A stretch of 64,000 nucleotides of DNA from an uncultured archaeon (lineage in GTDB: Archaea > Nanohalarchaeota > Nanosalinia > Nanosalinales > Nanosalinaceae): NCBI GenBank assembly GCA_964421955.1, contig CAYQYU010000002.1, positions 18,755 through 82,754 of the forward strand. Direction: 5' to 3'. The notes beneath the pieces were generated by a model. That model was given only the letters and a program-made list of their open reading frames with translations, had not been told where the DNA came from and did not search any database. The position numbers and the translations under genes are program-made. How positions within the stretch are numbered: position 1 is the first letter of the stretch; each line of letters starts with the position of its first letter. Below, one piece after another: positions 31,050 to 56,960 of the stretch.

Positions 31050-31205
31050 ACGAATAATGCTTGAACCTTAGTTTATAAGCTTAAATCAGATCTGTCGCCG
31101 GAAACACTATTTAAACCGTCTATGAACAAGATTTCCGATAGAATCGGAAGTATCATCGAAGACAGGTCTTCTCGGAATCCTCTCTATAAGAATCCCTGAA
31201 AGGAA

Positions 31206-31382
31206 TGGGGTCGGAGGGATTTGAACCCGCAACCTACCGCTAGCTCCTGCGCTAATTTTTAATCATCAGAGTCAGGTGACTCCTCATCCCTCCAAAGTTG
31301 GTTGCCCCGCAACCGTCACTTGCGTTTGCGTAGCGTAACACGCACTGGAGGCGGTCGCTCTGCCGAGTTGAGCTACGACCCC
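31206..31382 (-). tRNA. tRNA-Trp(CCA) with 103-nt intron at 37/38 (31242-31344)
   Basis: GGGGTCG/CGACCCC acceptor stem, ACCGC-CTCCAG|A-GCGGT anticodon arm, GTTCAAATC T-loop. Confidence 0.93.
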
Positions 31383-53599: not shown

Positions 53600-53683
53600 T
53601 GCGGCTGCCAGGATTCGAAACTCTAGCGAGTTTCTGCTCCTCACAACTCAGAGAGTTGCTTAGTTGCAAGCAAATCCCGGTTC
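53600..53683 (-). repeat. tRNA-Glu 3'-end duplication with internal inverted copy
   Basis: 53600-53619 matches 53703-53722 at 18/20; inverted CAAATCCCGG at 53671-53680; two internal hairpins. Confidence 0.8.
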
Positions 53684-53702
53684 CTAGCATACGTGAAACG
53701 GA

Positions 53703-53834
53703 TGCGGCTGCCGGGATTTGAACCCGGGTCTACGCCTCGAGAGGGCGTGATGACTTGCCGTCGTGTCCCGGCAGTTGTAGGCCGAGAAAATCCCTGAAGG
53801 GTTTCCGACTTTGGCCAGGCTACACCACAGCCGC
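53703..53834 (-). tRNA. tRNA-Glu(CTC) with 57-nt non-canonical intron at 21/22 (53754-53810)
   Basis: GCGGCTG/CAGCCGC acceptor stem, ACGCC-CTCTCGA-GGCGT anticodon arm; removing the insert restores GGCCAA|TCAT. Confidence 0.9.
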
Positions 53835-55361: not shown

Positions 55362-55504
55362 TGGACTCGCGGGGATTTGAACCCCGGGCCTTCTGCTATC
55401 CCGCGTCGAAGCTACAAGTATTCGCTTCTCGAACTGTCAACTCTCACTACTGTTCGAGCAGCCAGTGTTGCGAAGCAGACGTTCTCCCACTGAACTACGA
55501 GCCC
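55362..55504 (-). tRNA. tRNA-Ala(CGC) with 71-nt intron at 37/38 (55398-55468)
   Basis: GGGCTCG/CGAGTCC with G3-U70; TCTGC-TTCGCA|A-GCAGA anticodon arm. Confidence 0.93.
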
Positions 55505-55693
55505 CTGGCAGTAAACAGTGATGCACGAAGAGTTTTTATGGTTAAACCTTGCCGATTAGATCGGGCGCCAGAATGGGCTCGATAGTTTCTATATCTTTCT
55601 TTGATTATCCCTTAACCGATATAGGCGGCTGTATACGCTGTTAAAAGGCAGCAGTCCAATAAGTTTATTTGCTAATTTGCGGGGGGTGAAAAG

Positions 55694-55987
55694 ATGAAGA
55701 ATTTTTTCCTGAACGAGAAACCGGTGATGGCTCTGGTGGCCATCCGGCAGAAACGGGACGACGTGTACGGCAGCATAATATCGAAGGAGATCGACACGAC
55801 TTACGCTCACACGGTCAAGATACTGTCCCGGCTGGAAGAAAACGACCTGGTCGAGACTGAGAAGAAAGGAAGAAAGAAGATACTGAATCTAACTGAGGAG
55901 GGCAAAGAGTACAGCGACCATTTCATCCAGCTACTGAACTCGTTCGAGAACAACGGCCACCTGAACCAGGCCGCGGTGAAGTCCTGA
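55694..55987 (+). CDS. Winged-helix (MarR-like) DNA-binding protein
   Basis: ISKEIDTTYAHTVKILSRLEE..LV...KKGRKK...LTEEG. Confidence 0.88.
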   Translation: MKNFFLNEKPVMALVAIRQKRDDVYGSIISKEIDTTYAHTVKILSRLEENDLVETEKKGRKKILNLTEEGKEYSDHFIQLLNSFENNGHLNQAAVKS

Positions 55988-56027
55988 CGGGATAACAAAG
56001 ATAATCCTTCAGGTTCCAGCCCAGTGC

Positions 56028-56216
56028 ATGGCCCAGAGAAAACTTGAGCTGCGGCTCGGAGCCTACTCAATCGGTGTCAACCTGATCTCGCTCGCGGTTG
56101 CTGCGGTATTTTTCTACCACGGCGAGATATTCTACGGAGTTCTCGCATTTCTCTTCACCGCGATAGTCCTGCTAGCACTCATCTACACCAGAACATCTCA
56201 GCCGGGAAACAGCTGA
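56028..56216 (+). CDS. Small two-TM protein
   Basis: Two hydrophobic helices. Confidence 0.6.
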   Translation: MAQRKLELRLGAYSIGVNLISLAVAAVFFYHGEIFYGVLAFLFTAIVLLALIYTRTSQPGNS

Positions 56217-56244
56217 TAAAGCTTCGACACAGTTAACAAGATCG

Positions 56245-56811
56245 ATGGAAGACACTGTAGACCACGAAGAACTGGCCGCCGAAATATACCACAACCTTCT
56301 CAACTGGGGCGACCATGAACTTACAAGCGGAAAGAACAGCGATTTCTACGTTGATATAAAGGGCATCGGAGAGTTCCCCCTAATCCACCGATCGCTGAAC
56401 AAGATGGCCGAACAGTACCTGGAAGAAGAGAGCATTAACTACGATATAATAGGGTGTGAAGGAATGGGAGGCGTAACTACCGGGGTGCCATTGGCAACCT
56501 ATCTGACCACGGAGAATAGAGAAGAGAGATGGACTGTCCTGAGACCACAGCGAAAAAACCACGGTGACAAGAAAATGTACGCAGGAGCCGATCCCGAAAA
56601 CCGTGACCTCCTCCTGGTCGATGACGTGATCACCACCGGCGGAAGCGCCGCAGAGGCAATAGACAAGTTCAGGGATCTCGGAGGAAATCCTGTTTATTTT
56701 CTCTCATACGCCGACAGGGGAGAAGGCGGACTCGAACTGGTCAAAGAACGAGAAGTCGATGCAGACGCCCTCTTCCACATAGACGAGATAATGGAAAACG
56801 GTAGAAAATGA
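56245..56811 (+). CDS. pyrE: Orotate phosphoribosyltransferase-like protein
   Basis: LTSGKNSDFYVD, RKNHG, LVDDVITTGGS. Confidence 0.85.
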   Translation: MEDTVDHEELAAEIYHNLLNWGDHELTSGKNSDFYVDIKGIGEFPLIHRSLNKMAEQYLEEESINYDIIGCEGMGGVTTGVPLATYLTTENREERWTVLRPQRKNHGDKKMYAGADPENRDLLLVDDVITTGGSAAEAIDKFRDLGGNPVYFLSYADRGEGGLELVKEREVDADALFHIDEIMENGRK

Positions 56812-56817
56812 CCCTTA

Positions 56818-56960
56818 TGGACTCTCGGGGATTTGAACCCCGGGCCTCTTCCAATTTGGCGTCGCAGATCAAAGACCTGCTCGAACTGTCATCACCTCGA
56901 CTAAAGCTCGGGAAGACAGTGTTGCCAAGGAAGCGTTCTGCCAGACTGAACTAAGAGCCC
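56818..56960 (-). tRNA. tRNA-Ala(GGC) with 69-nt intron at 37/38 (56854-56922)
   Basis: GGGCTCT/AGAGTCC with G3-U70; CTTCC-TTGGCA|T-GGAAG anticodon arm. Confidence 0.93.

Follow-up and report, generated by a model that had tools for sequence, protein, structure and literature searches.

The 64,000-nucleotide window analysed here, a stretch of contig CAYQYU010000002.1 from an uncultured archaeon of the Nanosalinaceae (assembly GCA_964421955.1), carries on its minus strand two tRNA-Ala genes that are interrupted by related introns, and it is the folded interior of these introns that concerns us. The tRNA-Ala(CGC) gene, intron included, occupies positions 55362..55504 (Rfam RF00005, 56.2 bits), and the tRNA-Ala(GGC) gene occupies positions 56818..56960 (RF00005, 51.5 bits). 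The Rfam tRNA model placed an insertion of approximately 71–74 nucleotides (nt) in the anticodon loop of both genes, and ARAGORN, which named them Ala(cgc) and Ala(ggc), called introns of 71 nt (55398..55468) and 69 nt (56854..56922), both at position 37/38. Both introns have a canonical bulge-helix-bulge (BHB) motif. Nucleotides 32–35 pair 4/4 with intron positions −6 to −3, which gives a helix of 4 base pairs (bp) between two 3-nt bulges; the 5′ bulge consists of C36, A37 and the first A of the intron, the 3′ bulge consists of A, T and nt 38, and the inner flanking helix begins with a C-G pair. The intron side of the central helix lies in a tail that differs between the genes: in the CGC intron (tail at 55398..55405), CGGG pairs with TTCG, whereas in the GGC intron (tail at 56854..56861), CCAA pairs with TTGG. 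The geometry of the CGC intron was read from the sequence, and the minimum-free-energy fold of the tRNA-Ala(GGC) precursor contains the cloverleaf, the BHB and both domains of the intron described below. A splicing endonuclease is encoded at a single locus of this genome (PF01974 match, 96.8 bits; open frame of 194 amino acids).

The two introns are homologous. In a global alignment, 49 of 67 aligned positions are identical, and the alignment score of 65 compares with 11.7 ± 6.0 in 500 shuffles (z 8.9, shuffle maximum 31). The third isoacceptor, tRNA-Ala(TGC) on contig C16, has an intron identical to the GGC intron at 59 of 67 positions (z 14.7); ARAGORN called this gene Cys(gca), a mislabelling judged by its anticodon loop. 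Model R1, described below, detected one copy of a module in each intron, at 55404..55469 in the CGC intron (64.3 bits, E ~1e-15) and at 56860..56923 in the GGC intron (66.7 bits). In this module, helix P1 encloses hairpin P2 and is followed by a junction, hairpin P3 and a terminal GA. In the CGC intron, the alignments and pair counts place P1 (ACTG.../...CAGT) around P2, which has a GCTC/GAGT stem and a loop that begins and ends with GA, at 55433..55466; the junction TCGA, P3 and the GA, which together form a conserved GA...GA core, follow at 55406..55432 according to column frequencies. The corresponding parts of the GGC intron are P1 (ACTGTC/GACAGT) around P2 at 56885..56920, supported by alignment, pair counts and fold, and the junction TCGA, P3 (GCAGGTC/GATCTGC) and GA at 56862..56884, supported by alignment, column frequencies and fold.

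Comparison with relatives provided the evidence for this fold. RNAalifold, applied to a MAFFT alignment of 15 introns, drawn partly from this genome and partly from eight relatives (alignment A3, not fitted to any model), yielded P1 with 6 bp, P2 with 4 bp and P3 with 5 bp, the same three helices as in the covariance model R1 that was built from A3. Twelve of the 15 RNAalifold pairs were kept through two-sided changes. Pairs formed in 89.5% of the cells of A3, compared with 71.0% after shuffling and at most 48.6% in slid registers, and none of 500 shuffles matched the observed value on any pairing measure. Searching the window and 97 loci with R1 yielded 93 matches, 92 of them distinct, which were aligned by fitting to the model (alignment A4). 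Here, the 92 distinct sequences paired in 91.3% of cells, compared with 72.6% after shuffling and at most 54.2% in slid registers, with 254 double-sided changes against 61 in the shuffles. Compensatory change was present in 15 of 17 pairs, and all three helices were supported; on four of five measures, none of 500 shuffles reached the observed value, and five of 500 did so for the number of compensatory pairs.

The conserved core consists of NN-GA between P1 and P3, an invariant G-C pair and two A-U pairs at the start of P3, and the GA after P3. Among the 92 sequences, the expected base was found 80 times at G112, 92 at A113, 91 at G114, 91 at C185, 89 at G186 and 85 at A187; GA was present on both strands in 76 of 92 and the G114-C185 pair in 91 of 92. 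GA also stands at the start and end of 34 of the 52 P2 loops that are at least 8 nt long, and 19 sequences have an inner GA/GA pair within a long P3. Loops vary freely, and the family contains no conserved single-stranded segment resembling a guide. These results show that the module family exists, that it is old and that it is under selection for its structure and its GA core.

Much of what the first-pass annotation of this stretch had claimed agrees with these results. It had described homologous introns in the CGC and GGC genes, and the sequence blocks it quoted are all present as written; the 3′ hairpin is paired in both introns despite having a different sequence in each, and the tails CGGG and CCAA fit their own anticodon loops, as it had said. 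Its proposals that the introns are structured and that conservation extends far from the splice sites were upheld by the compensatory changes across genera in P1, P2 and P3 and by the conservation of the core across families of the order. The annotation had singled out a lack of covariation among homologues as a reason to abandon the idea; the covariance model, applied to relatives, revealed covariation in all three helices. It had also not recognized the family, and none in Rfam 15 matched the introns at E≤10. The third alanine isoacceptor and the copies in many other tRNA genes and at non-tRNA sites go beyond that annotation.

The module is widespread in this genome, which comprises 922,649 bp in 27 contigs with 51% GC. 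ARAGORN called an intron in 29 of its 40 tRNAs, several of which were mislabelled. At E<0.01, R1 found 21 sites, 12 of them in tRNA introns (three Ala, two Gln, Arg CCT, Arg TCG, Leu GAG, Met, Ser GGA, Val GAC and Lys CTT) and nine elsewhere. By eye, the module plan was recognizable in the introns of Gln(CTG), Gln(TTG), Leu(GAG), Arg(CCT), Ser(GGA), Val(GAC) and Met, and a sub-type occupies Lys(CTT), Lys(TTT), Thr(TGT), Leu(TAA) and Arg(TCG), the last with two tandem copies. The module fills about half of the intron-bearing tRNAs. Outside tRNA genes, copies flank 16S rRNA approximately 50 nt upstream of its 5′ end and 54 nt downstream of its 3′ end (C20:85-142 and C16:18689-18735), the upstream position recurring in relative G002 (L119), and others lie at 3′ ends of protein genes, against start codons or between genes. 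No Rfam 15 family was matched at E≤0.01 by modules from 12 sites outside tRNAs in this genome or from eight loci of relatives.

A weaker R1 match (E 0.08) falls inside the RNase P RNA of this genome (C12:6077-6479; L132 228-630), which has an insertion of 105 nt in place of 10 model positions in the P8/P9 area, with a module-like hairpin. This RNA scores only 53 bits, against a gathering score of 84, because of its large insertions. Relative G038 has a full module (L095, 48.8 bits) followed by a block that recurs in the RNase P RNA of this genome; this module may lie in the RNase P RNA of that relative, and Rfam gave no match at this locus. A weak module-like match of uncertain membership also lies directly 3′ of tRNA-Trp in the window (31154..31209, minus strand; R1 16.5 bits, E 0.12). 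The introns of this tRNA-Trp (window 31206-31382, minus strand) and of elongator tRNA-Met (C6:15456-15630), of 103 and 101 nt, contain GATGA/CTGA-type boxes like those of box C/D guide introns, and in the tRNA-Met intron a module of the family is nested between the boxes. Two tRNA-Leu genes, CAA and TAA by eye (C1:140740-140899 and C15:16301-16527), which ARAGORN mislabelled as Arg and Glu, seem to be interrupted by an additional intron around the D arm.

The family extends across the Nanohaloarchaeota. The order and the phylum are represented by the same 70 genomes, and R1 had a match at E≤1e-3 in 51 of these; over the 70 genomes, the reported matches number about 280 or more. With the present genome excluded, matches were found in 37 of 49, 5 of 10, 8 of 8, 0 of 1 and 0 of 1 genomes of the families of the order. 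An exact core pattern of at least 22 bases, searched in 185,579 species genomes, returned three records, all of them metagenome-assembled genomes of Nanohaloarchaea or Asbonarchaeaceae, and the same pattern gave no match in viral contigs. Among the 93 fetched matches, 77 are inside tRNAs called by ARAGORN; counting those with a T-arm motif behind them as well raises the number to 80. With anticodon labels read by eye from the anticodon loops, at least 12 tRNA identities carry the module (Ala, Arg, Thr, Ser, Leu, Gln, Gly, Lys, Glu, Val, Met and Trp), and the Met and Trp copies are nested inside introns of C/D type. The tail pairs 4/4 with its own anticodon loop in 61 of 93 matches in a permissive search. 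Excerpts of an earlier study give counts of 15/39 and 4/38 nanohaloarchaeal tRNAs with introns (PMC10266531), and passages in another associate the α4-type endonucleases of DPANN archaea, which have an extra loop, with more tRNA disruption (PMC5829648). In the literature searched, supplements aside, we found no description of a conserved intron family in nanohaloarchaea.

Among related genomes, four kinds of tRNA-Ala gene can be distinguished. Ten loci carry the present module family; a second group has introns with a GGTTACGC...CACGCAAT signature, a third has introns with a ACGAACTTCTGAAAGTTCGA signature, and the fourth is intronless. The second of these intron families also occurs in Arg(GCG), Asn(GTT), Thr(GGT), Gly(TCC) and Trp of this genome, and the tRNA-Ala genes that contain it belong to other genera (relatives L035, L038, L043 and L052). 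Another recurrent element (AACTTCTGAAAGTT + GATCATCA) forms the start of the Arg(TCT) intron of this genome and also lies directly 3′ of many tRNA genes (L060, L107, L121, L122, L021 and C15:11900). When three DNA runs were compared at the level of contigs, contigs of run X2 with 80% likeness joined the exons of the tRNA-Ala genes without the 63/69-nt inserts, and one, from another organism, joined 56853 to 56923, omitting exactly 69 nt. Such contigs probably stem from other organisms whose tRNA-Ala genes lack an intron, and they thus have no bearing on expression or mobility in this strain.

The relationships among copies indicate both vertical descent and copying between genes. We compared nearest neighbours among 70 hand-labelled, tRNA-borne modules. 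The CGC module is nearest to the Ala(CGC) intron of another genus (p-distance 0.09), which indicates orthology. The GGC module is nearest to the TGC module of this genome (0.07), and the Arg(TCG), Leu(TAA), Lys(TTT) and Lys(CTT) modules of this genome are mutual nearest neighbours, which indicates copying between unrelated tRNAs. Modules nested within P2 or P3 of another copy occur, as do tandem modules; copies are also found in the Met and Trp introns and beside the 3′ end of a split tRNA-Arg, and no clean non-canonical BHB was worked out there. As only two positions of the tail must fit the anticodon, a copied module might become spliceable after very few changes. The first-pass annotation had raised, as one of two options, a mobile intron spreading between isoacceptors; spread between tRNAs is the option that best fits a distribution over at least 12 identities with nested, tandem and non-tRNA copies.

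Only one of 14 non-tRNA copies of the full module had a flanking repeat longer than expected by chance, and target-site duplication is therefore not general for full modules. One 45-nt module after a protein gene (C15:19330-19430, minus strand) lies between the copies of a 27-nt direct repeat; the repeat ends exactly at the stop codon, and its first copy thereby keeps the reading frame intact. Hairpins of P3 type were also observed directly behind complete tRNA genes, followed at 0–3 nt by a repeat of the last 15–24 nt of that tRNA, at Lys(CTT) (C1:103737-103800), Ser(TGA) (C1:122190-122310), Ser(CGA) (C14:9480-9598), Glu(TTC) (C15:11700-11973), Arg(CCT) (C17:1850-1990), where the arrangement is more complex, and Glu(CTC) (window 53600-53704). 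In the Ser and Glu trailers, part of the sequence is complementary to the T loop. Flanking repeats of at least 10 nt were found at 11 of 93 strict hairpins, compared with 2.15% of 2000 random sites, and these structures may have been left behind by insertion or by att-type recombination. In the window, the P3-like hairpin of the tRNA-Glu(CTC) trailer, at 53615..53636 on the minus strand, is followed by an imperfect repeat of the tRNA 3′ end and stands outside the finding reported here. The ARAGORN call for this tRNA-Glu(ctc) (53704-53777, minus strand) is below the Rfam gathering score, and by eye its matching 5′ acceptor strand is absent; it may be a disrupted or unusual gene. The open reading frames of 97, 62 and 188 amino acids between the two tRNA-Ala genes, on the opposite strand, do not enter into the finding; by eye, the 188-amino-acid product looks like a phosphoribosyltransferase.

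Tandem sheared G-A pairs occur in kink-turns (k-turns) and k-loops, and the core has their sequence signature; a k-turn is made of a helix, a few unpaired nucleotides, G-A and A-G pairs and a second helix. The module presents the same order of elements, its two GA strands fit tandem sheared G-A pairs, and the tips of P2 and of long P3 hairpins resemble k-loops. The core is thus consistent, as judged from its sequence, with a k-turn-like or k-junction-like three-way junction. It differs from a simple k-turn in that the non-bulged strand is discontinuous, as expected of a three-way junction, and in that the bulge may have 2 nt rather than 3. Motifs of the k-turn and k-junction type are bound by L7Ae (PMC5539422, PMC4245976). 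The present genome encodes L7Ae, and we tentatively propose, at somewhat less than even confidence, that this protein binds the core of the module. In the leader of the L7Ae gene itself (C6:44050-44115; L138 1400-1455), we observed a k-loop-like element, CC-GAT-GA-CCCTTT-GA-GG, which recalls the autoregulation of L7Ae in other archaea described in a passage of PMC5539422. Other known motifs were considered on inspection of the sequence and dropped: a hammerhead-like core, as there is no CUGA-type strand; an H/ACA pocket, which would need a larger internal loop; and a second BHB within the module.

The explanation of these observations that we prefer, and hold with moderate confidence as a whole, is that the tRNA-Ala introns are BHB introns carrying an old, selected and proliferating k-turn-like module with a role in cis. 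They are ordinary BHB introns, presumably removed by the single short splicing endonuclease of this genome, and the interior of each is one copy of a structured module of approximately 55–65 nt common to the Nanohaloarchaeota. The 6-bp P1 would continue the stack of the BHB, with P2 enclosed and P3 at the side, and the base of P3 presents a near-invariant GA on each strand, preceded by 2–3 unpaired nucleotides. A short tail specific to each tRNA pairs with the anticodon loop of that tRNA and creates the splice motif. We suppose that the module multiplied by DNA-level copying between genes, and that its core serves as a protein-binding platform, for which L7Ae is the obvious candidate. Such a platform might hold an insert of 60–130 nt in a compact shape and thereby allow proper folding of the tRNA body and the BHB, which would amount to a cis role in the folding and splicing of the precursor.

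Several points weigh against this explanation. Single-sequence folding is unremarkable (z −0.15 for the CGC, −1.7 for the GGC and −1.5 for the TGC intron), and because these energies are weak, the case for structure rests on comparison. In that comparison, A4 was fitted to R1, related sequences can outdo shuffles without any structure, and the fetched sequences are the top-scoring matches and not a random sample. GA is present on both strands in just 8 of the 16 copies of this genome. With respect to the k-turn, three nucleotides separate G108 from G112, and the first of these, immediately after P1, covaries with column 4 (AU 70, GC 5, CG 2), so that the bulge perhaps consists of 2 nt instead of 3. 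The continuous non-bulged strand of a simple k-turn is not present, as the strand after the GA exits to the BHB and the tRNA, which leaves only a junction-type variant possible; the tandem G-A/A-G beside a helix is a feature of the sequence. Finally, clustering of neighbours was modest: for 15 of 70 modules, the nearest one had an identical anticodon (null 4.5 ± 2.5), and for 10 of 70 it came from the same genome (null 3.6 ± 2.2).

Four other explanations can be weighed on the same evidence, beginning with a role in trans. The excised and probably circularized intron could be a stable small RNA that acts in protein titration or delivery or as a modification guide, with the core selected for that purpose. 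That the core is conserved at a distance from the splice sites, and between families of the order, would fit, as would the free-standing modules beside 16S rRNA, in the 3′ and 5′ flanks of genes and in the RNase P RNA expansion, where splicing cannot be the selected role. We nevertheless consider this unlikely, as the freely varying loops leave no conserved single-stranded segment that resembles a guide, and the presence of the module varies among orthologous tRNAs. Such variation would be surprising if the trans factor were essential, even if redundancy among many copies could account for it. An element that is purely selfish or neutral, in which likeness reflects recent copying, structure serves only tolerance or excision and the cell derives no benefit, would account for the patchy distribution (19 of 70 genomes have no match), the different intron families in the same tRNA-Ala across relatives, the nested and tandem copies, some hairpin copies with long direct repeats on either side and the decay of the GA core in this genome. 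It is quite unlikely in view of the 15 compensatory pairs and a near-invariant GA...GA core in three of five sampled families, which point to long-term purifying selection rather than a recent burst, and of the closeness of the CGC module to the orthologous intron of another genus.

Two functions suggested for the introns from their sequence fared less well. The first-pass annotation had entertained a guide RNA, and the tRNA-Trp intron is a known box C/D guide RNA. The GGC intron contains GTGATGA, which resembles the C-box consensus; however, this heptamer spans the junction of the 3′ strands of P2 and P1, is absent from the CGC copy and occupies columns that are not conserved in the family. 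Neither intron has a D-box-like CTGA, and neither matched an Rfam C/D family at E≤10, so that a box C/D methylation guide is effectively refuted at the level of sequence. The annotation had also suggested a pseudoknot or conformational switch in which ACTG/CAGT competes with CYCGARC/GTTCGAG, and in the CGC intron the two 7-mers are indeed perfectly complementary. Over 64 sequences, however, per-position pairing was 53–100%, all seven pairs formed in only seven, and no double-sided change was found. In 15 of 64 sequences, the T/C position that varies fails to pair with the invariant A113, whereas with its partner in P2 it covaries (UA 59, CG 20). Within the fold, CYCGA is the 5′ strand of P2 with the start of its loop, and GTTCGAG is the junction from P1 to P3. 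A switch is therefore very unlikely.

The module can be compared with known systems. As in canonical archaeal BHB introns, the site is 37/38, two 3-nt bulges flank a 4-bp helix formed by nt 32–35 and the tail, and an endonuclease gene is present. Such introns are generally held to be unconstrained outside the splice motif, according to passages in PMC4090602; by contrast, approximately 50 nt of the interior are conserved here in sequence and structure across a phylum. The 'transposed' tRNA introns of Thermoproteales (Fujishima et al. 2010), whose mechanism is described as not known in an excerpt of PMC4090602, are likewise very similar introns in tRNAs of different identity, implying copying at the DNA level. 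Those introns are from Crenarchaeota, however, whereas the present ones belong to a DPANN lineage, have a three-helix fold with covariation and a GA...GA core, and have copies in 16S flanks, RNase P RNA and gene flanks. The C/D guide introns of tRNA-Trp and tRNA-Met also have a selected interior with tandem G-A motifs of the L7Ae type, but the module has no C/D boxes, guide segment or Rfam C/D match; in this lineage it is even nested inside the C/D-type introns of Met and Trp.

BHB introns themselves are known; what is new here is a BHB-intron family that spans a phylum, multiplies between tRNA genes and has an unusually well-defined conserved fold. Archaeal tRNA introns are usually treated as filler outside the splice motif, and yet a single folded module has retained its invariant core over the depth of this phylum. 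It is possible, if rather unlikely in our judgement, that the module is a non-autonomous mobile RNA/DNA element, a protein-binding k-junction cassette that inserts as DNA wherever the host RNA tolerates or excises the insert. Its sites would be anticodon loops, in which a few tail mutations would suffice for a BHB, other introns, rRNA spacers, a helix of RNase P RNA and gene ends, sometimes with target duplications of 21–27 nt ending exactly at the 3′ boundary of the gene. If true, archaeal tRNA introns would for the first time have a concrete vehicle for reaching their genes, by a route that passages in PMC4090602 and in a study of Asgard tRNA introns (bioRxiv 10.64898/2026.10.13.758758) leave as not known, the consulted excerpt of the latter reporting none. 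The module also explains why standard finders mislabel or miss tRNA genes in these genomes, and it offers a traceable sequence family for dating the gain, loss and copying of introns across about 70 genomes. It is a candidate RNA–protein platform that may be needed to fold or splice the heavily interrupted tRNA precursors of a symbiont with a reduced genome.

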